DNA of 64,000 nucleotides from Candidatus Saccharimonadales bacterium (GTDB lineage Bacteria; Patescibacteriota; Saccharimonadia; Saccharimonadales; EFPC-124), in contig DATIBO010000006.1 of assembly GCA_035457485.1 (NCBI GenBank), forward strand, positions 94,134 to 158,133, read 5' to 3'. The translations under genes and the position numbers were made by a program. Shown here piece by piece: positions 1 to 43,914 of this stretch. Positions within the stretch are counted from its first letter, which is position 1; each line of letters starts with the position of its first letter. The notes beneath the pieces are model-generated. The model was given only the letters and a program-made list of their open reading frames with translations, had not been told where the DNA came from and did not search any database.

Positions 1-527
1 TTTTACCAACCGCACGCCTAAACGCCGCCAGCAAAATTTTAAAAAGCTTTGGCTTAAACGAGCGCGAATATTATATGCCGTATCAGTTAAGCGGGGGTCA
101 ACTACAGAGAGTAGCGATTGCGAGAGCACTTGTAACTAAACCGTCGCTAATTTTAGCCGACGAGCCCACCGGCAATCTAGATACAAAGTCCAGCGAAATT
201 ATCATGGAAGAACTGGCCGACATCCATCGCCGCGGAAACACAATAATTATGGTCACACACAACCCGGACGTCGCGATTTACGCCGATCGGATAATCCAAA
301 TGGTTGACGGTAGGATCGCCAGCGACAGCAAGCACCCAATCGACGAAGTAGAAAAAGACAAACGCCCATTAAGCACCTTCCGCAAGGCTATGGAAGCGGC
401 CGTAAAAGCCAATGAGGATTTTGCGAACGCAACTGAGGCCATGACCGAAGAAGCCTTACCACAAAAGCCCACCCGAAAAAGTAAAAAAACGCGCCGCAAA
501 GCCGTTAAAAAAGGTCGCCGCAAATGA
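1..527 (+). CDS. ABC transporter ATP-binding protein (MacB/LolD-like), 5' partial. The reading frame is open from position 3 and continues the listed ORF upstream
   Basis: ABC signature [17 protein letters not shown] followed by Walker [12 protein letters not shown] and H-loop MVTHN; frame 3 is open back to the window edge; Lys-rich C-terminal tail; 4-nt ATGA overlap with the downstream permease. Confidence 0.8.
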
Positions 528-2851: not shown

Positions 2852-3379
2852 GTGGGCATGAACGAAGATCAACACTTACAAACTCCAGTCAGCGGTGACG
2901 ATGATTTGGCAAAAGCATTAAGCGACCAGAGCGGCATGAAGTTCGAGGAAACCCCTATGCCAAGCATGATTACAGATGATTCCGCCAGCCAGCCGCCCGC
3001 TCCACAAGTTAGCGAACCGGAAAAAGATGAAGAAGTCGAAACTCCTGCTCCAAGTAGCTGGAGCCCTGGCGCTGATTCAAACGACACTAAAGATGAGCCC
3101 GAAACTCCTGCAGTTACAAGCCACAGCTCAACCAGCGACGACAGCTTAGACAAAATTAAGGATGATGTTGTTAATGCAATTAAACCTCTTTTAGGCAAGC
3201 TAGACCTTCCGCCTGAGGAAAAATTTGACACAATGCTTTTAGTAATCCGTTCTACTGACGACCAAAGTTTACTACAAGCTACATTTAACGCCGCGAAAGA
3301 AATTCCCGACGAAGCCAAGCGTGCCAAAGCATTGCTCGATGTAATGCGCGAAGTTAGCTATTTTAGCGGTAAAAAATAG
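2852..3379 (+). CDS. hypothetical acidic, low-complexity (disordered) protein
   Basis: Long ORF with SD-like GGGGTGGG upstream; D/E/S/P-rich N-terminal two-thirds, helical C-terminus; no recognisable domain. Confidence 0.4.
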   Translation: MGMNEDQHLQTPVSGDDDLAKALSDQSGMKFEETPMPSMITDDSASQPPAPQVSEPEKDEEVETPAPSSWSPGADSNDTKDEPETPAVTSHSSTSDDSLDKIKDDVVNAIKPLLGKLDLPPEEKFDTMLLVIRSTDDQSLLQATFNAAKEIPDEAKRAKALLDVMREVSYFSGKK

Positions 3380-3437
3380 CATCTAAGTACCCGGGGGTGG
3401 TTCGAAGGTTATTCTTACTAAGGTTATTAGATTTATA

Positions 3438-3767
3438 CTAGTTTAAGTTATGTATCTTAAAGCCCGCCACCCCAAGAGCTAGCTCCTTTTCGCCGTAAAA
3501 TTGGCGCATATCAGCTAAAAGTTCTCGCTCTGTTTTACCGAAACGCTCAGTTGGATAAGAATTAAACAACTCTTTAAAGCTTCCGAAACGCAAAATTCCT
3601 ACGACTTTTGCTACGATTTCTTTTTTAGTTTCGCGATTGATAAAAACAATCATGTCGCCAGCTTTTATTTTGGCGTGGATTTCATCGTATAATCGTGGTT
3701 CGATTATACGTTTCTTGCTTAAAATAAGTTCGAATGTTGGTTCGTCTACTTCACTTCTAAAGATCAT
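3438..3767 (-). CDS. ASCH-domain (PUA-like) protein
   Basis: ~110 aa, pattern resembles ASCH family small RNA-binding-like proteins. Confidence 0.5.
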   Translation of the reverse strand: MIFRSEVDEPTFELILSKKRIIEPRLYDEIHAKIKAGDMIVFINRETKKEIVAKVVGILRFGSFKELFNSYPTERFGKTERELLADMRQFYGEKELALGVAGFKIHNLN

Positions 3768-3784
3768 TCTTTAAGTGTAGCAGG

Positions 3785-3861
3785 AATTTCTGCGGGGCCC
3801 ACATCGCGACATTTCTGCGATGTGGGCCCCTTGGCGTCGGGAGCTGAGGAGGTCAGCTCCT
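3785..3861 (-). terminator. two consecutive GC-rich hairpins downstream of the high-GC gene. The first is a 14-bp perfect inverted repeat, GGGGCCCACATCGC-9nt-GCGATGTGGGCCCC. The second is an 8-bp inverted repeat, GGAGCTGA-GGAGG-TCAGCTCC
   Basis: Perfect inverted repeats read directly; located immediately 3' of the minus-strand CDS 3853..4914 (the second hairpin overlaps its stop); no strong U-tract (actinobacterial-style intrinsic terminator). Confidence 0.5.
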
Positions 3862-4914
3862 CTTTGACGCCCCGGGCTTCAGCTGTGTAGCCAGCCCGAT
3901 CTCCTTACCGAGCGCCGCAGCCGCATCAGCCAGTGGCTTAAGGTGAGCCAGTGCGGCCACCTCAGCTGTCAGCCGCTCGATCTCTCGCTTGAGCGATGCG
4001 ATCTCGCTGGCCTGCGTGCGGTTGGCTGAACGCGCCGCACTCAGGTCATCCGTCTTCTTGGACAGTCGACCTTCGAGCGAAGCGACCTTGATGCGAAGAT
4101 CACGAATCACCGCAGCCGCCTGAAGCAGGTTCGTCAGAGGGTTGGAGTTAACCTCTGTAGCCGGCTGCTCCTCGGCGACAGGAACCTCAGGCTCGTCGGG
4201 CGCGCCCGCCTTGACCGAAGTCTCGGTGGCCTTAGCCTTTTCTGCCTGTTTCACCATCTCCGTCGTGACTCGCGTGATGGAAGTATCGACGAAGTGTCGG
4301 CGGAGTCCACCGCCGACGTTATCGGTCCAGCGCAGACCCATCGCGTTCAGTAAGCTCGCGATGCTCGACGCCTGCCGCCTGGTGATCCCGGTCAGAACTT
4401 CAGCCGCCAGGCTGAGGATACTGTTGTGGTCGGGAATGAAATTGTGTTTGCCGCGGGTGTTGTGTTCGTAACACATGTCACCACCCTCACACTCGATAGA
4501 GACATCGTCTCCTTGCAAGTACGTCAGGAGCTTCGTAGCCTCTTCGGCACGACGCTCCACACTTAGCAATTCGGTCGGCTTGTCGGCTGACTCTCTCACT
4601 TCCGCCTCACCATCTTCCGGCTTCTTGTCGATCTTCGTCGTGGTAACGGGAGAGTTATGGGCGCCTCGAGGGAGCTTCTTCAACCCCATCTCGACGATCA
4701 CGTCCCCCTCTTTCTTGACCCATGTCCTCCGCTCACGGCACATGGTGGCGACCAGCGCATTGATTTCCGCAAGCGGAATCCCAAACGCCAGAGCGATTGC
4801 CACGGTCGGCTCCTCGAACTTACCACCGATCATGCGACCAGAGATACGCCCGTGGTGCTGCAGCAAGAATCCGACGATGCGATCTGCATCCGTCGACTTC
4901 GGGTTTTCGGCCAC
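3853..4914 (-). CDS. hypothetical protein encoded by a ~62% GC single-gene island; C-terminal coiled-coil
   Basis: Long ORF in a region whose GC (about 62% in sampled 60-mers) is ~20 points above flanks; opposite strand carries stop-free spurious ORFs typical of high-GC DNA; heptad-like C-terminal ~100 aa; N-terminal domain unrecognised. Confidence 0.55.
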   Translation of the reverse strand: MAENPKSTDADRIVGFLLQHHGRISGRMIGGKFEEPTVAIALAFGIPLAEINALVATMCRERRTWVKKEGDVIVEMGLKKLPRGAHNSPVTTTKIDKKPEDGEAEVRESADKPTELLSVERRAEEATKLLTYLQGDDVSIECEGGDMCYEHNTRGKHNFIPDHNSILSLAAEVLTGITRRQASSIASLLNAMGLRWTDNVGGGLRRHFVDTSITRVTTEMVKQAEKAKATETSVKAGAPDEPEVPVAEEQPATEVNSNPLTNLLQAAAVIRDLRIKVASLEGRLSKKTDDLSAARSANRTQASEIASLKREIERLTAEVAALAHLKPLADAAAALGKEIGLATQLKPGASKRS

Positions 4915-5036
4915 TTTTCCTCCTCGTGATACCGAAGAAAATATTATAACATAAAATTAAATAAGTTCTAGTGAGAGGACCGCGAGTAAGCGGCCCTTAA
5001 TCACCTAGCGCTCATGTAGGCGCTAAACAAGGTTAG

Positions 5037-6683
5037 CTACATCATGCCCATACCAGGCATGCCACCGCCAGCAGCTGCAGCTGGCTCATCCTTTGGAATA
5101 TCGACCACCAAAGCACCCATTGTCATTGCCGTTGCTGCAATCGACACGGCGTTTTGGATCGCTTCTTTAGTTACGCGGGCTGGATCGACTACACCTTTAC
5201 CCTTTAAATCAACTAGTTTTTCAGGGCTGTTTACATCAAAACCTTGACCGGTTTTTTTACTTGCCATAACTTGTGGAAGCTTTTCGTCGGCATTTAAGCC
5301 AGCGTTTAACATCAGTTGTTTAAACGGCTGAACAAGTGCGTTCTTCAAAAGCTGGTGCCCGGCTGCAACACTATCGTTGCCAGCAACATCGATTGTTTTA
5401 CTTAAGTCAACCAGCGTAACGCCACCACCGGCAACCACACCTTCGGCCAACGCAGCTTTAGTCGCAGCTACGGCGTCGTCTACTCTAAACTTCTTCTCTT
5501 CGATCTCAGTTTCGGTAACGCCACCAACTTTAATTACGGCAACTTTGCCACCCAAAGCTGCTGCACGCTTTTCGTAGTTTTCTTTGTCGTACTCGCTGGT
5601 TGCAGCGCTCGCTTGAGCTGTAATTTCGGCAATTCGCGCGTTTACTTCTTTGGTTGCTCCGGCGCCTTCGATAATTGTAGTTTCATCTTTACCTACAATC
5701 ACTTTGCGAGCTGAGCCAACCATGCTCAGTTCTGCATTTTCAAAGCTGTGACCTTGCTCTTTGGTGATTACGGTCGCACCTGTAAGCACAGCTAGATCCT
5801 GCAAAATCTCTTTGCGGCGGTCGCCAAATGCCGGAGCCTTAACCGCAACCGTGTTAAACACACCCTTTAATTTGTTCAAAACCAAAGTTGCGAGTACTTC
5901 ACCCTCGACATCTTCGGCAATTAATACTAAGTCTTTTTTGCCAGCTTGAGCTAACTTCTCGAGCATTGGTAAAAATTGTTGTACGCTAGTAATTTTTTCG
6001 TCAGTAATCACGATTGCCGGCTTGTCGTAGCTAGCTTCCATGCGTGCAGTGTCGGTCACCATGTAGCTGCTTACAAAGCCGCGGTCCATAGTGAAGCCTT
6101 CGACCACTTCGCTCTCTAGCTTCAGGCCTTGGCCCTCTTCAACGGTTACCACGCCGTCTTTGCCGATTTTACTGATTACATCAGCAATTAAGGTGCCTAT
6201 TTCTTTGTCGCCAGCGCTGATTGTTGCGACTTCGGCGATTCGCTCTTTTTTACTACCGATTTGCTCGGCCATGCCACTAAGTTTGGCAATGATTTCAGCT
6301 CCAGCCGCCTCAACTCCTTTGCGAAGCTCCATTGGATTGTGGCCAGCAGCAATCAAGCGATTGGCCTCAGCCAAAATGTTGTAAGTTAACACAGTAACAG
6401 TCGTAGTTCCGTCACCGGCTACGTCGTTCATTTTGTTGGCGGCTTGCTTAATTAGATCAGCTCCAACTTTAAAGCCCAATTCCTCGTTGTCTTCTTCGGG
6501 AAGTTCGATCGCTTTCGCTACACTCACACCGTCGTGCGTAACAGTTGGGCCACCGTAGCCTTTGCTTATAACTACGTTGCGGCCTTTAGGACCCATGGTA
6601 ACTTTCACGGCATCATACAGGGCTTTCGCTCCACCCAGAACACGGCGACGCGCATCATCATCATAAAAAACTTTTTTAGCCAT
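5037..6683 (-). CDS. groL: chaperonin GroEL (60 kDa)
   Basis: Canonical GroEL sequence (AKKVFYDDDARRRV..., GDGTTTVTVL, C-terminal GGM repeat GGGMPGMGMM). Confidence 0.97.
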   Translation of the reverse strand: MAKKVFYDDDARRRVLGGAKALYDAVKVTMGPKGRNVVISKGYGGPTVTHDGVSVAKAIELPEEDNEELGFKVGADLIKQAANKMNDVAGDGTTTVTVLTYNILAEANRLIAAGHNPMELRKGVEAAGAEIIAKLSGMAEQIGSKKERIAEVATISAGDKEIGTLIADVISKIGKDGVVTVEEGQGLKLESEVVEGFTMDRGFVSSYMVTDTARMEASYDKPAIVITDEKITSVQQFLPMLEKLAQAGKKDLVLIAEDVEGEVLATLVLNKLKGVFNTVAVKAPAFGDRRKEILQDLAVLTGATVITKEQGHSFENAELSMVGSARKVIVGKDETTIIEGAGATKEVNARIAEITAQASAATSEYDKENYEKRAAALGGKVAVIKVGGVTETEIEEKKFRVDDAVAATKAALAEGVVAGGGVTLVDLSKTIDVAGNDSVAAGHQLLKNALVQPFKQLMLNAGLNADEKLPQVMASKKTGQGFDVNSPEKLVDLKGKGVVDPARVTKEAIQNAVSIAATAMTMGALVVDIPKDEPAAAAGGGMPGMGMM

Positions 6684-6961: not shown

Positions 6962-7038
6962 GATAACCTCCAGTTTTTGTAACTACATATTTACTATAGT
7001 CTGACTAGCACTGTCAAGGCAAGAGTGCTAGCGAGTAT

Positions 7039-8385
7039 TTATTCTTCGATAATTTTAGTAACTTTATTAATCAGTTCGTCCAAATCCTGTTGGCTTTTTG
7101 CCTCGGCGTTTAAACGTAAAACCGGCTCAGTGTTACTTGGCCGAACATTAAACCATTTACCTTGATCCTCGTAAGCTACTGTAATTCCATCAAGCAGATC
7201 TTGTGCGCCATCGGTAAAAGTTGCCCGTACTCTTTCAATAACTTGCGGTTTGTTTTCGACCTCAAAGTTTATCTCGGGAGACGACACATATTTATTACGA
7301 TACTTATTCGCCAAATCGCTGAGCTTTTCGCCACTCTCGGCTAAGGCCTGGATAGATAAAATCATGCCAATTAAACCAGAGTCGGTGTAAAAATTATCCT
7401 TAAAGTAAAGATGCGCAGTGTGTTCACCTGCAAAAAGCGCCTTTTGTGTACGCATATCGGCCTTAATGTAGCCAAAGCCCACGCGCGTTCTAAACGGCTT
7501 ACCGCCGGCCGCAACAATTGCATCCCTGGCCGTTTGACCGCAAATTAAGTTATACAAAATTGTTGCCCCCGGATTTTTGCCAAGCAAATATGTTGCCAAA
7601 ATTGCGGTTATCACCTTGCCCGTTACCACCTCGCCTTGCTCATCGAGCATTAAAGCGTGATCGCCGTCAGCATCGAATGCGAATCCAAAATCGCAAGCTT
7701 CGATGCTAATTTTAGCTTTTATTTGAGTTAGATTGTCGCCATTCAACGGATCTGCCGGATGATTTGGAAAACTAGGATCCGGATCAAAATACATTGGAAA
7801 AATTTGCAGAGGCAATTTAGTGGCAATTTTTTGTAAAATTGGGCCGGCTGCCCCATTACCAGTATCTATCGCCACCCTATATTTTGGCCATTTTGTAAGA
7901 TCGGCAAAGCTTAAAACGTGCTCAATCCAATCATCGGCTATATCTTTTTTAATAACTTGCCCAGTCTGAGGAGGCGATACAAACTGATTACTTACCACGA
8001 GATCACGAATATTCATCAAACCCTCGCCCACTCCAATTGGTCGCGCTTGTTCGTGGCAGAACCTTAGACCATTGTATTCTGAGTGAATATGCCCAGATGT
8101 AATCATTGCTCCGCCGGCCAGCCCAAATTTCCCCACGCAAAAGTACATCATGTCAGAGGTGATCTGGCCCAAATCCCAAACATCCCTTCCCTGTTGACGT
8201 ACCCCGTTTATAAAAGCCTCGGCAAGTTGAGCTGAGTCCGTGCGAATATCGCGCCCTACAACAACCGCTCCTGCGGTTGGCAGCCATGTCGCTAGCGCGC
8301 GACCCAGCCGCTCGGCAACTTCGGGGGTTAAATCCTCGCCAACTTTGCCGCGGACATCGTATGCTTTAAAAATGTCTAAATTCAC
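7039..8385 (-). CDS. alpha-D-phosphohexomutase family protein, divergent paralog (phosphomannomutase/phosphoglucomutase-like) with non-canonical catalytic loop
   Basis: Four-domain PGM/PMM architecture; N-term KAYDVRGKVGEDLTPEV; catalytic loop reads ITSGHIHSEYNGLRF instead of SASHNPPEFNG; metal loop FDADGDHA. Confidence 0.7.
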   Translation of the reverse strand: MNLDIFKAYDVRGKVGEDLTPEVAERLGRALATWLPTAGAVVVGRDIRTDSAQLAEAFINGVRQQGRDVWDLGQITSDMMYFCVGKFGLAGGAMITSGHIHSEYNGLRFCHEQARPIGVGEGLMNIRDLVVSNQFVSPPQTGQVIKKDIADDWIEHVLSFADLTKWPKYRVAIDTGNGAAGPILQKIATKLPLQIFPMYFDPDPSFPNHPADPLNGDNLTQIKAKISIEACDFGFAFDADGDHALMLDEQGEVVTGKVITAILATYLLGKNPGATILYNLICGQTARDAIVAAGGKPFRTRVGFGYIKADMRTQKALFAGEHTAHLYFKDNFYTDSGLIGMILSIQALAESGEKLSDLANKYRNKYVSSPEINFEVENKPQVIERVRATFTDGAQDLLDGITVAYEDQGKWFNVRPSNTEPVLRLNAEAKSQQDLDELINKVTKIIEE

Positions 8386-8453
8386 GCCGCGCCCCCTTAA
8401 CTAAGTTCATTATAGGCGCCCTGGCAATAAAATCCAGGGCGCAAAGAGCAAAC

Positions 8454-9881
8454 TTAGTTTAAAGCATCTACGTTTGCGGCAATTTTGTTTTCCCATTCTA
8501 CTTCTGGAAAACTATGCAACAGATCTGACAGATATTTTTTGAGCTTGTCGTAGCCCGGCTGGGTTTTCGACTCAAGCTTAATACCTAGGTACGGGCCATT
8601 CTGCGAGTAGCGCACCACAAACATACTGTCATCCGTTTCAAGCCGTACGCCATCACCTGCGCGCTCGTCGTCAATGATCTCGGCGCTTGGGAAATCTTTT
8701 TTGAGTATTGGCACTAATTTTTCAACCAACTTAACCTTTTTGTCATCAGCACAGGCTAGCTTGATTTCTGGGCTCGAAACATATTGAGGCATAGCCGCCA
8801 CTATTTCGCTAAGTTTTTTACCTGTCTCACTTAGGTAACGGATCAGGCGCAAAGTCGAGAACAACCCATCGTCGTGATTATAAAAATCAGCCGAGAAAAA
8901 GAAGTGGCCAGAAAGCTCTCCAATAAACGCAGCCTTAACCTCTTGGTTCTTCTTTTTTAAGAACGAGTGGCCGGTGCGCCACATAAATGGTTCGCCACCT
9001 TTTGCGGTAATCGTTTCGGGCACTGCCTTTGAGCAAAATGTGTTGAACATAATTTTTGCACCGAGATGATCCATCAGAACCGCTTCGGCAAAAATTGCCA
9101 CAAGCATGTCATTCCAGATTATTCCACCCTTTTCGTCAACAATTCCAATACGATCACCGTCGGCGTCGTATGTAAAGCCAACGTCTGCCTTTGCCTCTAA
9201 CACCTCTTTACTTAGACGATCGAGCACGTGCTTTTCGGTTGGATCAGCTACACCAAGCGGAAAAGTAGGATCCACTTTTGTATTGTATTCAATCACCTCA
9301 CAACCGGCTTGGCGCAAAAGATCTGGCGCAATTCCACCAGCAGTTGTGCAGCTCGGATCGACCACCACACGCAACCCTTTTTTAATTGGTAATCGTTTTA
9401 AAATATCGTCAAAGTAAGCTTGGCGAATATCACGCTGTTCAACCTTGCCTGGTTTTTCTGCCATGTCGTAATCTTCTTCTTGCACCATTCGGCAAAGTTC
9501 GCGCATACCATCGCTCACTAAAGTTTCCGAAAAATCATTGGCAAACTTAAAACCGTTAAATTCCGGCGGATTGTGGCTCGCGCTCACGTAAACGCCACCC
9601 TTGCGATTCAAATAATATTGCGACCAATAAAACGTGCCGATCATATGCATACCAATATCGATCACATCAACACCTGTTGCATTAAGACCCTCGATCAAGC
9701 TGGCGGCATATTCCGGGCTGGTTTGACGACAATCGCGACCAACTACAGCTTCGGTAATCCCTTGTCTTTTTAGGTAGGTTCCAAACGCGCGACCAATATG
9801 CTCGGCAATTTCTGGATTTAAATCTTCGCCCACTAAACCTCTAAGGTCATACCCACGAAACATATGTGGATTAATTTTCAT
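8454..9881 (-). CDS. phosphoglucomutase/phosphomannomutase (alpha-D-phosphohexomutase)
   Basis: Canonical motifs VSASHNPPEFNGFKF (phosphoserine loop), YDADGDRIGIVDEKG (metal loop), GELSGH (sugar loop). Confidence 0.85.
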   Translation of the reverse strand: MKINPHMFRGYDLRGLVGEDLNPEIAEHIGRAFGTYLKRQGITEAVVGRDCRQTSPEYAASLIEGLNATGVDVIDIGMHMIGTFYWSQYYLNRKGGVYVSASHNPPEFNGFKFANDFSETLVSDGMRELCRMVQEEDYDMAEKPGKVEQRDIRQAYFDDILKRLPIKKGLRVVVDPSCTTAGGIAPDLLRQAGCEVIEYNTKVDPTFPLGVADPTEKHVLDRLSKEVLEAKADVGFTYDADGDRIGIVDEKGGIIWNDMLVAIFAEAVLMDHLGAKIMFNTFCSKAVPETITAKGGEPFMWRTGHSFLKKKNQEVKAAFIGELSGHFFFSADFYNHDDGLFSTLRLIRYLSETGKKLSEIVAAMPQYVSSPEIKLACADDKKVKLVEKLVPILKKDFPSAEIIDDERAGDGVRLETDDSMFVVRYSQNGPYLGIKLESKTQPGYDKLKKYLSDLLHSFPEVEWENKIAANVDALN

Positions 9882-21293: not shown

Positions 21294-22481
21294 TCATGCT
21301 CTGATCGCGGTCCTGGCCTGAAACATTGCAAGCGCTGCGCTACTCACCACAAGCACGCCGGCGAATGCAATACCGTACAGAAGTGAGCCGCTAATTTCCC
21401 CAACTTTGCTCGAGATCCACCAGATCAAGGCAGACGACCCCCATAGAATCGTTCGCGAGATTGAGTGAATAGTTGCTCGCATGCGATCGTCGCCGATTTG
21501 CTCATTGAGCATCTGGTTGCTCATGGGGATGATGTTGGCGCGAACAAAATAAGTGATTGCAATCGCGCCGACAGCCACGAGTCCCGGCTTAACTACCAGG
21601 AGACCATAGCATAAGGCGGTAGCCGTGATCATAAAACTGAAGCTGGTCCACTGCATTTTAGACAGCCGTTTAATGAACGTCTGCCATACAAACACCGAGC
21701 CTAGTAACAGTGCCCAGTACACACTATAGATCCATCCGCCTGCGCCCTCGCCAATCTTAAGTCCGGAAAACTCGGAGTAGTAGACTGGCGTCCACCAAAC
21801 CAGAACGAACGACAAGTTCCCAGCTGTAGCTGCAAAAAGCAGCGCCCACAGCAAGTTCTTGTTATTCGTCACAGCCTTTCTCACCAACCCTACGCTAGGA
21901 ATCTCGTCATGAGAAAGAGGGTCATAAAGAACGAACGCGATCGCCGCAGCGACTGCATATAGGCCGGCCTGAACCCATAGGAGAGTCGAGATTTCGACAC
22001 CCAGTTCCACAACTAGCCATGCGCCCACCAACGAACAAGACGCTTCGAAGACTCCAGCGATCCCACGAGCCCTCGCATCAGCCTTCTTAGCCAGGTGGCT
22101 AATTCTAAGCCTTGCGAAGGTCTCAAACAGAAGTGCAGCATCGGCACCAACCATCAGGCTAGTGCCAAAACCCAGAATGGCGGCCGCTACACAGAACTGG
22201 GTCAGTGAATCTCCGGTTGCGTATGTGATCATCGCCAGCGCAGACAGAAGCGTGCCTGCGATCAGACTCTTTCGACGACCGTACGAGTCAGCCCAGCGGC
22301 CCGTCGGGATCTCGAAAATTGCCGACACCGCGGTACCAACCCCAATAACGACTAGGGTCGCCGTTGCGCCCATCCCTTGTGTCGTCAAGAATGGAGTAAG
22401 GATTGGGACATACATGAATGATCCACGGAGTCCGTAAAACAACAACAACCGATAGATGTTGCTCTTGAGCTTTGGGTACAA
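21294..22481 (-). CDS. MFS transporter
   Basis: 12-TM profile, motif GRWADSYGRRK in loop 2-3 (MFS signature G-x-x-x-D-R/K-x-G-R-R/K). Confidence 0.7.
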   Translation of the reverse strand: MYPKLKSNIYRLLLFYGLRGSFMYVPILTPFLTTQGMGATATLVVIGVGTAVSAIFEIPTGRWADSYGRRKSLIAGTLLSALAMITYATGDSLTQFCVAAAILGFGTSLMVGADAALLFETFARLRISHLAKKADARARGIAGVFEASCSLVGAWLVVELGVEISTLLWVQAGLYAVAAAIAFVLYDPLSHDEIPSVGLVRKAVTNNKNLLWALLFAATAGNLSFVLVWWTPVYYSEFSGLKIGEGAGGWIYSVYWALLLGSVFVWQTFIKRLSKMQWTSFSFMITATALCYGLLVVKPGLVAVGAIAITYFVRANIIPMSNQMLNEQIGDDRMRATIHSISRTILWGSSALIWWISSKVGEISGSLLYGIAFAGVLVVSSAALAMFQARTAIRA

Positions 22482-42351: not shown

Positions 42352-43914
42352 CTATGCTGGAAGCATAGTACAAATTTTTCTTCGGAGGTCAGGACTGATA
42401 TTACGACAAACGTAACTATCGCCCGTTAATCCACTCGACCCCCCCATATAGTAGACCCATCTACCATCCTTCCATTCAAGAGCAATGGAATATCCGTCTC
42501 CCCAAGTACCATAATCCTCGAGGTAAGAGTTGGCGTCGGCAACTATCCAGTTGTCGCTGCACCAAACCCGAAAAACTTCAGCATTACCTGGAAGTTGAGC
42601 AATCGCCTTAACCTCTTTTGCAGTCAAACATGGTACAATTCGAGTTACTTTGATTTGCAAAGTCCCGACGATCTGCATCCGCACCCCCTCCAGCGCGCTC
42701 ATCACCGTTGTCCATCCGAGTTTTACACCCTCGACGACGGCAAAAAAGCGGCCAAAGAACTTTTCGGTGAAGGTCATTGGATCGGCGAAGCCGCCCATTA
42801 CCCTCAACACGGTTTCGCCGCATTTGCTTGCCACGATTTCGTAAAAATCGTAGAAGCTCATTTTGGCGATGTCTTTGCCGAGCTTGGCAGCGTTACCCAG
42901 GCAACTCACGACATCTTGGATGTCGAGCAGCGCCCTGGCTCGCTTGACCGAAGTTGTTAGGTCCTCGCCGGTGGCAATACTAGCCAAGAACTTCAGCGAT
43001 CCCCAAATAGCTTCGGCCAAAAACACGTTAGGCTCAGCTCGCAACTCCACAGTTGCCGGCAGATTACTGGCCGTTAACTGCGCATCAAGCACGGCTCGTC
43101 GCGGCAAAAATGCCTGAGTTGCCTTGTTGTTGAACAGCTGCTTTGCCAGCTCAATGGTGTAGCGCTCGTCGTCGGTGGTCTCGCCGCCAACATCGAACTT
43201 AACACCCTTCGTGGCTGCAACCGACAAAATGTACTCGACGCGATTACTAACGCTGAGCATCGCTGTTTTGCCGGCGGCGTTCAGGCAGGCTCGAATCGGA
43301 CTGTCGGGTTTGGTCGTCGACCAGCCTGTCATACCGCTGATTTTGACCTTGCCGAGCTCGTTGGTCTTGACCTCGGTTTTACAGTCACCATCTTGCGGCG
43401 TACCTAGCAGAGACGGGCTGACGATTCCGCGCAGTGGCTCGTCGAGCAAGTATGACACTGTCTTGGGCGACAGATGCGGAACTTGCGCCTTGAGCACGTC
43501 ACCCTCGACGATTGCCGGCAAAAGCCGCCAGCCATCGCCATTGGGCGCGGGAGTGTAGAGCAGCGCTTGATCTGGCCGAACGCCAGCGGGCAAAAACTTG
43601 CCCTGCAGCTTCAGCTCGATCGTAAGCGGTTTAAGCGGTTGTGCTCCGCCCTCAAAACTGAGGTCGAACGTGCTCGAAGCCTTGAACAGGCTCGAAGCCG
43701 GCTTGTAGCTCTTAGGCTCGATCATGGTCAGGCGTGTGCCAACCTTAACCGCGCCATCCGGCACATGTACGGTAAGTTCGCCGAGAGTGTACGTGCCACT
43801 CTTATCGATCTTAACGGTGTGCTTCGCCGGCTCGTCACTACGAGTGCAGGCCGCACCAGCAGCCAGCATCAGCATCGAACAGGCGAGCGCAATTGTGCGC
43901 TTAATCTTAACCAC
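42352..43914 (-). CDS. hypothetical lipoprotein encoded by a ~62% GC single-gene island
   Basis: Lipobox LAAGAAC after basic n-region; 520 aa; GC about 62% versus about 43% in flanks; multiple stop-free antisense ORFs. Confidence 0.55.
   Translation of the reverse strand: MVKIKRTIALACSMLMLAAGAACTRSDEPAKHTVKIDKSGTYTLGELTVHVPDGAVKVGTRLTMIEPKSYKPASSLFKASSTFDLSFEGGAQPLKPLTIELKLQGKFLPAGVRPDQALLYTPAPNGDGWRLLPAIVEGDVLKAQVPHLSPKTVSYLLDEPLRGIVSPSLLGTPQDGDCKTEVKTNELGKVKISGMTGWSTTKPDSPIRACLNAAGKTAMLSVSNRVEYILSVAATKGVKFDVGGETTDDERYTIELAKQLFNNKATQAFLPRRAVLDAQLTASNLPATVELRAEPNVFLAEAIWGSLKFLASIATGEDLTTSVKRARALLDIQDVVSCLGNAAKLGKDIAKMSFYDFYEIVASKCGETVLRVMGGFADPMTFTEKFFGRFFAVVEGVKLGWTTVMSALEGVRMQIVGTLQIKVTRIVPCLTAKEVKAIAQLPGNAEVFRVWCSDNWIVADANSYLEDYGTWGDGYSIALEWKDGRWVYYMGGSSGLTGDSYVCRNISPDLRRKICTMLPA

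Follow-up and report, generated by a model that had tools for sequence, protein, structure and literature searches.

The deoxyribonucleic acid (DNA) stretch analysed here, called the window below, comprises 64,000 nucleotides (nt) of a Candidatus Saccharimonadales genome (assembly GCA_035457485.1, contig DATIBO010000006.1, positions 94,134 to 158,133), and all coordinates refer to it. On its minus strand, directly after groEL, lies a single-gene island of high GC content whose open reading frame (ORF), 3853..4914, encodes a protein of 353 amino acids (aa), referred to as the slot protein. On balance, we favour the reading that the island is a small expression cassette for an oligomeric DNA-binding protein, in which the coding part has been repeatedly replaced, or has diverged extremely fast, inside a vertically inherited frame and from a GC-richer pool of Saccharibacteria. 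The slot gene is rated here as an accessory gene that is exchanged laterally and occupies a hypervariable slot. Its unusual aspect is a GC excess which persists across lineages inside a conserved expression frame.

The ORF and the two hairpins at its 3′ end form the strongest GC anomaly of the window. Along 200-nt intervals, the GC content jumps from 0.375 (3601-3800) to 0.64 (3801-4000), is held at 0.55-0.64 up to ~4900 and then drops to 0.475-0.50. The 1.1-kb interval starting at 3801 is the GC maximum of the whole 64 kb (0.599, for a mean of 0.445 and a standard deviation (sd) of 0.036). An initial annotation of this stretch had described an island of ~62% GC with abrupt edges and with the stop-poor shadow ORFs typical of GC-rich DNA. 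The island is real, its edges are as sharp as described and the shadow ORFs are found on the plus strand (4142..4471, 4475..4954 and 4657..4929), but the mean over the ORF is 0.598 (0.442 elsewhere in the window) and only local peaks reach 0.64.

The ORF has GC values of 0.63/0.46/0.70 at the first, second and third positions (GC1, GC2 and GC3; GC3 0.703), versus an average of 0.53/0.38/0.41 for 53 genes of the host, that is, the genome which carries the island. Its GC3 lies 5.5 (5.45) sd above the host mean of 0.41±0.05. Synonymous codon usage was scored as a log-likelihood, host model minus GC-rich-Saccharibacteria model, in bits per codon. On this scale, 51 host genes score +0.29 ± 0.07 (minimum +0.15) and the island −0.25, ~7.7 sd outside them. 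Island codons are better described by the GC-rich-Saccharibacteria model (−1.77 vs −2.02 bits per codon). Furthermore, GGT, GCT, CGT and CGA codons are numerous, a moderate usage unlike that of a genome with 65-72% GC. The island gene is compositionally foreign to its own genome. Such a composition marks either a lateral origin or a non-neutral process; it does not identify the donor.

The cassette and its neighbours are arranged as follows, from upstream to downstream.

5037..6683, minus strand: groEL, the upstream neighbour (ORF and Pfam).
4977..4996, minus strand: post-groEL stem-loop GGGCCGC-UUACUC-GCGGUCC, just past the groEL stop (5037), from the RNA fold of 4905-5045 on the minus strand.
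4943..4951, minus strand: extended −10 promoter-like element TGTTATAAT, read from the sequence, in an AT-rich spacer of host-like composition.
4919..4925, minus strand: Shine-Dalgarno sequence AGGAGG, 5 nt before the GTG start.
3853..4914, minus strand: coding sequence of the 353-aa slot protein, with GTG start (ORF; HSE29072.1, 'hypothetical protein VLA77_00605').
~3833-3871, minus strand: 3′ hairpin 1 (6 + 8 bp), overlapping the stop codon (inverted-repeat search and RNA fold).
3794..3830, minus strand: 3′ hairpin 2, a perfect 14-bp GC-rich stem with a 9-nt loop (inverted-repeat search and RNA fold).
3438..3767, minus strand: ASCH-domain gene, the downstream neighbour (Pfam ASCH, E 4.8e-5), with host-like GC3.

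Several of these elements recur in two related loci, L085 and L087. A hairpin orthologous to the post-groEL stem-loop (GGGGCTGC...GCGGCCCC) is found there at the equivalent place; the stem-loop is a probable groEL 3′ terminator or stabiliser and probably marks the upstream edge of the cassette frame. The −10-like element has a counterpart at the equivalent position in L085 (TTTTATAAT), within a block (5006..4909) which is 72-74% identical. A simple −35/−10 scan missed TGTTATAAT, a good −35 being absent, and 4943..4951 is regarded here as a putative promoter. The 13-nt string that spans the ribosome-binding site (RBS) and the start, AGGAGGAAAAGTG, is identical in the window, L085 and L087.

At the 3′ end, both hairpins of the initial annotation, one with a perfect 14-bp and one with an 8-bp repeat, are confirmed. 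In hairpin 1, the 8-bp repeat (3840-3847/3853-3860) is lengthened by a stem of 6 bp (GGCGUC/GACGCC). Hairpin 2 is built from a perfect inverted repeat with arms at 3794-3807 and 3817-3830 (GGGGCCCACATCGC-N9-GCGATGTGGGCCCC). Together they fold at −61.5 kcal/mol (z = −8.0), a stability reached by 0 of 200 shuffles, and no U-tract follows either of them. Of all perfect local inverted repeats in the window, that of hairpin 2 alone is GC-rich, the rest being A/T-flanked and canonical terminator-like. The hairpin has no further copies within the window and no match in Rfam, and its readings as a dispersed repeat or a known RNA were rejected. Hairpin 2 is orthologous in L085/L087, where its stem differs by two changes, one compensatory (G-C to A-T) and the other compatible with a wobble pair (A-U to G.U). 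The cassette frame therefore predates the split between the window and L085/L087, since both the 3′ hairpin and the promoter/RBS region have orthologues there.

With its promoter-like element, strong Shine-Dalgarno sequence, ORF and two very stable stem-loops, the cassette looks autonomous. The stem-loops could serve to end transcription or to protect the transcript, or they could act in the form of double-stranded DNA. In the last case, the 14-bp palindrome, which ends 27 nt upstream of the ASCH start codon, could be bound by a dimeric winged-helix protein, and could be the slot protein's own binding site.

Both low-GC flanking genes, groEL and ASCH, were correctly recognised in the initial annotation, and the ASCH gene belongs to the conserved frame, outside the GC island. 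The annotation had also reported an absence of integrase, direct repeat and tRNA at the edges, and this stands: no integrase-like ORF occurs between 1750 and 6961, no tRNA lies nearer than 22.6 kb to the island and no convincing repeat was found. The sole flanking direct repeat, of 15 nt and 87% identity (3722-3736 / 4959-4973; AAATAAGTTCGAATG / AAATAAGTTCTAGTG), brackets the cassette. It was rejected as a target-site duplication because its downstream copy lies within conserved ASCH codons, and rather than a relic of an insertion event it is probably a chance match.

The protein family appears, from the searches made, to be very rare and known so far only from Saccharibacteria-type contexts. 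When 5.8 billion clusters were searched first, the sole match was the slot protein itself (HSE29072.1, from an 889-kb contig of a Candidatus Saccharimonadales metagenome-assembled genome). An exhaustive phmmer search with aa 1-240 against 1.84 billion representatives of ~15 billion proteins found four relatives, P0002 to P0005 (E 2e-9 to 2e-4), each aligned to aa ~103-231; when aligned, these and the slot protein have a common three-part architecture. Profile and cluster look-ups gave two extra loci; the profile scan, with a hidden Markov model (HMM) over 80 Saccharibacteria groEL loci, added L070 only (E 1.2e-9). Family occupancy is one in 80 GTDB-representative loci plus five metagenomic loci. 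Identity to the window protein is 38% for L085, 36% for L082, 31% for L083 and 19-25% for L070. No relative was detected by tblastn in 50,697 phage records (including actinophage) and 72,556 plasmid records, or in a protein scan of viral contigs. A hand-made degenerate motif scan returned only an already-known contig from the metagenome collection and nothing from 2.9 million viral contigs. As synteny probes over genome contigs, ASCH gave no relatives while groEL succeeded. One literature search yielded nothing on the groEL-slot locus in particular.

Where the flanks allow it to be judged, the genomic position of the family is constant. In the 80 Saccharibacteria loci compared around groEL (closest groEL 83% identical), the order groES-groEL-gap-acidic protein (minus strand)-SIS isomerase is kept in ~63, and the gap between groEL and the acidic protein varies from 26 to 5,506 nt (median 1,362). 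To judge from these comparisons, the island occupies a hypervariable slot inside a conserved frame. All relatives with enough flank are in this same slot, in other Saccharibacteria.

L083 and L084 (P0004; two independent assemblies): groES, groEL (75%), gene, acidic protein (minus strand), SIS. In L083, slot gene GC 0.575, GC3 0.63; neighbours GC 0.456, GC3 0.39-0.40.
L082 (P0003; GC-rich host): groEL (81%), 80-aa ORF, gene, acidic protein (minus strand). Slot gene GC3 0.626; groEL GC3 0.615.
L070 (from the HMM scan; Cys/His motif lost): gene directly after groEL, before the acidic protein-SIS pair. Slot gene GC3 0.47; neighbours GC3 0.42-0.45.
L085 (P0005): gene, hairpin, ASCH (73-75% aa identity to that of the window, in L085 and L087). 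Slot gene GC 0.546, GC3 0.61; ASCH GC3 0.345; comparison GC 0.431.
L087 (P0006): gene, hairpin, ASCH, then acidic protein (74%) and SIS (84%). Slot gene GC 0.56, GC3 0.65; neighbours GC3 0.355-0.38, GC about 0.43.
L081 (P0002): 1.5-kb contig without informative flank. Slot gene GC 0.604; upstream 200 nt GC 0.37.

By these identities, the genome of L087 appears to be fairly closely related to that of the window. In none of the member loci does the slot contain an integrase, a tRNA, an att-like repeat or any further mobile-element gene.

Within this frame, the coding sequence behaves very differently from its surroundings. Between the window and L085, the post-groEL hairpin, promoter and RBS/start region is 72-74% identical and the 3′ hairpin with ASCH 70-72%, whereas no significant DNA similarity is left over the ~1.07 kb of coding sequence that they enclose. 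Of the encoded proteins, the mid-domain alone aligns (37.5% aa identity). Indeed, the slot gene of L085/L087 encodes 118 aa and only the mid-domain, versus 353 aa and three modules in the window. A second comparison, between L083 and L070, gives the same picture: aa identity is 91% for groEL, 85% for groES, 67% for the acidic protein and 64% for SIS but 28-31% for the slot protein, and the flanks retain 75-78% nucleotide identity while the slot gene has no DNA similarity. Overall, close relatives share 64-91% aa identity in the flanking genes and 28-38% in the slot coding sequence.

In low-GC hosts, the family gene is elevated (GC3 0.61-0.73 vs 0.35-0.40 for the neighbours); in L082 it matches its GC-rich host, and in L070 it is nearly host-like. 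Four-fold sites of the flanking genes are near or at saturation, even in the closest pairs. Between the window and L087, their identity is 0.39 (0.27 by chance), a Jukes-Cantor distance of 1.25, and a single acquisition before the split followed by neutral decay would need an ancestral GC3 of ~1.0, which is extreme but not strictly impossible. Between L083 and L070, the GC-class difference at four-fold sites is 0.499, and saturation would give 0.485. Any trace of the ancestral composition should therefore have been erased in this pair, yet the slot genes differ in GC3 (0.63 vs 0.47). Saturation together with a kept GC excess argues that the coding part would have been re-imported or replaced after the splits from a GC-richer pool, or that a non-neutral force acts on it. 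On these sequence comparisons, the GC excess is not a fading relic of one transfer.

The architecture of the slot protein was examined by structure prediction. AlphaFold2 gave an unusable model from the single sequence (mean predicted local distance difference test score (pLDDT) 45) and a pLDDT of 76 with a five-sequence family alignment. The following modules were delimited.

4675..4902, minus strand: winged-helix domain 1, aa 5-80, of topology H-beta-H-H-beta-beta (AlphaFold2 pLDDT ~83-92).
4210..4572, minus strand: domain 2, aa 115-235, with a helix, a Cys/His knuckle and a helix-turn-helix (HTH) with beta-hairpin wing (AlphaFold2 pLDDT 71-95).
4444..4491, minus strand: putative zinc motif C142-x5-C148-x2-H151-x5-H157, invariant in five of six members and lost in L070.
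3883..4140, minus strand: C-terminal coiled coil, aa 259-344, a long helix (pLDDT 82-93).

In the model, a disordered linker lies between the two winged-helix domains, and a second linker separates domain 2 from the coiled coil. The 'novel N-domain plus coiled coil' of the initial annotation is thus replaced by two predicted winged-helix domains and a coiled coil. Domain 2 is the conserved family core and is matched by all relatives. Residues T127, E141, C142, C148, H151, H157, Q181 and L189, as well as G193, L194, G201, G203, H207, V209, T217 and M220, are invariant across the five sequences. The Cys/His pattern suggests that the knuckle binds a metal ion, presumably zinc. The coiled coil is a probable oligomerisation module.

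Database matches are confined to the coiled coil or to the fold class. For the slot protein and all six members, Pfam, PHROGs, NCBIfam and PADLOC gave coiled-coil-type matches only, and aa 1-235 have no Pfam or NCBIfam match in any of the six. Profile matches of the coiled coil in the PDB are also of this type, for example P22 gp26 (E 2.5e-6), and PHROG 18412 is matched at E 3.6e-4; the gp26 match is most simply a similarity of heptad pattern. Foldseek searches of the PDB returned winged-helix proteins only (Z-alpha, AspA, CadC/SmtB, MarR-type proteins, ScpB, RPC62 and the Roquin ROQ domain). Domain 1 superposes locally on Z-alpha (template-modelling score (TM) 0.79, root-mean-square deviation (rmsd) 1.9 Å), AspA and MarR/ArsR-type winged-HTH proteins. 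In BFVD, the best-scoring matches are multi-winged-HTH proteins of phages, labelled 'HTH domain', 'replisome organizer' or 'replication initiator' (E 3e-4 to 1e-3). According to the model, the slot protein is most likely an oligomeric sequence-specific DNA-binding protein, DNA binding and oligomerisation both being predicted from the fold. It is best described as a probably zinc-stabilised, tandem winged-helix protein of a new and very small family.

How could a foreign-looking gene come to lie in an inherited frame? In the favoured reading, the family would circulate within Saccharibacteria and have a source other than the actinobacterial host of the epibiont. Incoming alleles would derive from a pool of ~55-60% GC, a level found in GC-rich Saccharibacteria, in which gene and host agree in composition. 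Homology for replacement by recombination would be supplied by the conserved flanks, with groEL at one end and the hairpin, ASCH, acidic protein and SIS genes at the other. We favour replacement within Saccharibacteria because the composition of the family is native in L082, because island codon usage fits GC-rich Saccharibacteria genes and because sister genomes differ abruptly in GC3 and in domain content, in a manner that resembles allele swaps.

Several points weigh against this reading. No donor allele is known, the closest relative being ~38% identical over one domain, so that replacement from a Saccharibacteria pool is deduced from a pattern and not observed. The amelioration estimates are rough, two-state and made near saturation. 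Slot cargo in general was considered as a GC-rich class, but the GC maximum of the locus falls in the slot in 9 of 53 loci for 5.8 expected (P = 0.11), which is not significant. Two contigs are short: neither slot nor taxon can be confirmed for L081 (1.5 kb, no flank), and L085 (1.1 kb) is placed solely via the adjacent ASCH gene and an identity of 91.5% to L087. As to the protein, the predicted structure rests on a five-sequence alignment, the Foldseek matches to the PDB are insignificant for the whole chain (best E 0.023), and whole-chain TM-scores against fold libraries are low (0.15-0.26; 0.16-0.26 for BFVD).

Vertical inheritance is a serious but distinctly less probable account. In this case, the gene would date from an early Saccharibacteria ancestor, would have been lost in most lineages and would diversify fast under selection. 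Its high GC3 would be kept up by an active process, such as GC-biased gene conversion at a hotspot of recombination or selection that acts on properties of the mRNA or the DNA. It would explain why family divergence roughly follows genome relatedness (from 38% identity in L085 through 36% in L082 and 31% in L083 to 19-25% in L070), and is consistent with the preserved reading frame and invariant residues and with the orthology that links promoter, RBS and hairpin of the window to those of L085/L087. A GC3 that stays high despite saturated neutral sites requires re-import or active maintenance, and the latter is part of this account. However, a single locus-specific force would not be expected to yield slot-gene GC3 values of 0.63 and 0.47 in the sisters L083 and L070 (groEL 91%), and the change from three modules in the window to the mid-domain alone in L085/L087 is abrupt. 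No independent sign of gene conversion was found, and the general GC enrichment of the slot is, as mentioned, not significant. An origin as remnant or cargo of a mobile element of Saccharibacteria (phage, plasmid or integrative), such as a moron-like unit or a gene for repression, partition or replication organisation that outlasted the element, is unlikely. The composition of the element would explain the GC content and an insertion preference the position after groEL. The promoter-ORF-hairpin layout with deviant GC fits the 'moron' concept, the BFVD fold matches and the P22 gp26 and PHROG 18412 matches point to phage proteins, and unrelated GC-rich ORFans occupy the same slot at several other loci. 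Against it stand the lack of mobile-element genes, att-like repeats and tRNAs in the slot of all member loci and the lack of any sequence match in the phage, plasmid and viral collections searched, while the coiled-coil matches reflect heptad-pattern similarity and the fold matches have low TM-scores.

Two further explanations concern the origin of the sharp GC boundaries. The initial annotation had read them as a recent transfer from a high-GC actinobacterial host of the epibiont, a very improbable origin which the sequence evidence appears to have largely refuted. The GC of 0.60 and GC3 of 0.70, for host values of 0.44 and 0.41, are what such a transfer would bring, and the window/L087 pair, taken alone, fits neutral decay from a donor GC3 of ~0.95-1.0 near their split. 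Many actinobacterial terminators are GC-rich hairpins without a U-tract, as are those of the island. However, the initial annotation had expected the best matches in Actinomycetota, whereas the search of 1.84e9 representatives gave four relatives, with no actinobacterial homologue and none outside a Saccharibacteria context, and the phage, plasmid and viral collections gave none either; all relatives with context lie in groEL or ASCH/SIS neighbourhoods of Saccharibacteria, in the same slot. The supposedly actinobacterial-style hairpin is orthologously conserved in the low-GC L085/L087, together with an AT-rich, host-like promoter, and the codon usage is moderate. Recency is equally difficult to maintain, given homologues in the same slot of L070, L082, L083/L084 and L085/L087. 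The closest homologues are found in low-GC relatives and have a similar GC content (0.575 in L083, 0.546 in L085, 0.56 in L087), an outcome which the initial annotation itself had named as a refutation. What remains of the initial claim of a horizontal origin is the foreign composition itself, in both GC3 and codon usage; the donor and the recent date do not. Finally, a high-GC fragment chimerically joined into a low-GC contig could produce abrupt boundaries in a metagenome-assembled genome. Here, the boundaries coincide with functional signals (the RBS/start codon at one end, the hairpin followed by the ASCH start at the other), and the promoter and hairpin which straddle them are orthologous in L085/L087. 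A chimera is effectively excluded because a GC-rich homologue in a low-GC frame is reproduced by independent assemblies, L083 (ENA), L084 (JGI) and L085 and L087 (Logan).

The possible role of the slot protein can be approached through its neighbourhood and through known systems. Upstream of groES, a CIRCE-like inverted repeat, CTAGCACT-N11-AGTGCTAG, lies at 7005-7031, with three mismatches to the consensus; 0.02 such operators are expected by chance, which suggests HrcA-type control of groESL in this Saccharibacterium. Because this operator is present and because the family occurs in one of 80 species-representative loci, the slot protein is probably not the dedicated regulator of groESL. A gene that is rare, patchily distributed, extremely divergent and foreign in composition is typically an accessory, conflict-related one and not a housekeeping gene. 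By analogy, our best guess is an accessory conflict-type regulator or a DNA-binding exclusion factor, acting for example against mobile elements, and not a housekeeping function. A more elaborate version is doubtful, although we mention it: the conserved expression frame after groESL would hold a single-gene conflict or immunity locus, in which alleles of the tandem-winged-helix/zinc-knuckle/coiled-coil protein are swapped or driven apart and the GC content is actively maintained by gene conversion or import from a pool. Such a locus might, for example, exclude phages or mobile DNA, or recognise host or competitor DNA.

Among known systems, phage 'morons' (described by Hendrix, Juhala and colleagues) are reportedly autonomous units of deviant GC that sit between conserved genes, each with its own promoter, ORF and terminator. 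The cassette resembles them in its single ORF, promoter-like element, 3′ stem-loop, deviant GC and position between conserved genes. In contrast to morons, it lies in a bacterial chromosome near groESL, ASCH, SIS isomerase and phosphomannomutase genes and not in a prophage, its hairpins have no U-tract, the family turns up at one and the same slot across genomes and no phage homologue was found. O-antigen clusters (galF-gnd) and the pneumococcal cps locus (dexB-aliA) are replaced by recombination through their flanks and have atypical GC across strains. They share with the slot a position fixed by conserved genes, a divergent content and a compositional anomaly that persists across lineages; however, slot cargo is one regulatory-type gene with GC above that of the host, and neither breakpoints nor circulating alleles were observed. 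A classical genomic island also shows an abrupt compositional break and atypical codons, but the present one measures 1.1 kb, holds one gene and has no integrase, tRNA or convincing direct repeats. Integron cassettes carry attC, an imperfect inverted repeat with R''/R' core sites (GTTRRRY), and have an IntI integrase nearby, whereas the island hairpin is a perfect 14-bp stem without a GTTRRRY core and no integrase-like gene adjoins it.

At the protein level, both globular domains are predicted winged helices, as in the tandem proteins of the Rep initiator, replisome organiser, ScpB and RPC62 types. No tandem iteron-like repeats, looked for by comparison with replication initiators, occur in 3400-5300. 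Local superpositions with single winged helices comprise Z-alpha 4kmf (TM 0.79), pNOB8 AspA 4rs8 (TM 0.63) and CadC/SmtB/MepR (rmsd 2.4-3.7 Å). The slot family differs from known winged-helix families by the lack of Pfam, NCBIfam or PHROG matches to the globular domains, low whole-chain TM-scores, a Cys/His knuckle that precedes the second HTH and an extended coiled coil at the C-terminus. With the MarR and ArsR-SmtB Pfam families only the fold class is common, none of the six members reaching the sequence threshold.

Other observations concern the slot and its neighbours. The acidic low-complexity protein (window 2852-3379, plus strand) has counterparts in L001-L080 and adjoins a SIS-type isomerase in ~65 of 80 loci. 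Its C-terminal motif LPPEEKFD..LLxIRSTDD...ALLDxxxExxYF is conserved. It belongs to none of the Pfam or NCBIfam families and appears to be an uncharacterised protein conserved throughout the phylum. In other loci, the slot holds GC-rich ORFans (L074 8423-9022, L066 ~8400-9000, L001 7769-8449, L002 ~8315-9007 and L004 6549-6914), with GC values of 0.61 for a background of 0.43 in L074 and 0.69 for 0.57 in L001, and no Pfam match. Those of L001 (226 aa), L002 (154 aa), L004 (121 aa) and L074 (199 aa) were rejected as distant members of the family (profile-profile E 0.13-0.69). In L087, an ORF of ~81 aa with a winged-helix-like pattern lies upstream of the 118-aa slot gene (~118-360, plus strand). 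It is in register with the N-terminal domain but was rejected as a split-off form of this domain (hhalign E 0.25; nothing by BLASTP); the slot gene may have been split into two ORFs in the L087 lineage. The same locus has an additional 460-aa ORFan between ASCH and the acidic-protein gene. An element of ~20 nt, AAGTCCTCG(C/T)TCTGGGGCAA, occurs in two distantly related loci (L082 ~3080-3105 and L083 ~4165-4190), where it lies in the intergenic region on which the slot gene and the acidic-protein gene converge.

Elsewhere in the window, two genes have an unusual composition. The second-strongest GC anomaly is a 520-aa ORFan at 42352-43914 (minus strand; GC 0.544, GC3 0.618, codon score −0.11). 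Neither Pfam nor NCBIfam gave a match for it, its N-terminus resembles a lipoprotein signal with a lipobox-like LAAGAAC, and it may be another laterally acquired surface protein. An MFS transporter gene at 21294-22481 (minus strand; Pfam MFS_1, E 1.6e-20) has a GC of 0.532 and a GC3 of 0.596, and its codon score of −0.01, for +0.29 in host genes, denotes non-host-like usage.

Gene flow from host to epibiont is a live question in Saccharibacteria, and a sharp high-GC single-gene island would readily be flagged as host-derived. The slot gene is a case in which this signal can mislead about host origin. It also provides a compact example of a locus with a conserved frame and hypervariable cargo in a reduced genome, and adds an uncharacterised predicted DNA-binding architecture in which two winged helices are combined with a Cys/His knuckle and a coiled coil. 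If the cargo is a conflict or immunity factor, it would extend the sparse knowledge of genome defence and regulation in ultra-small epibionts.

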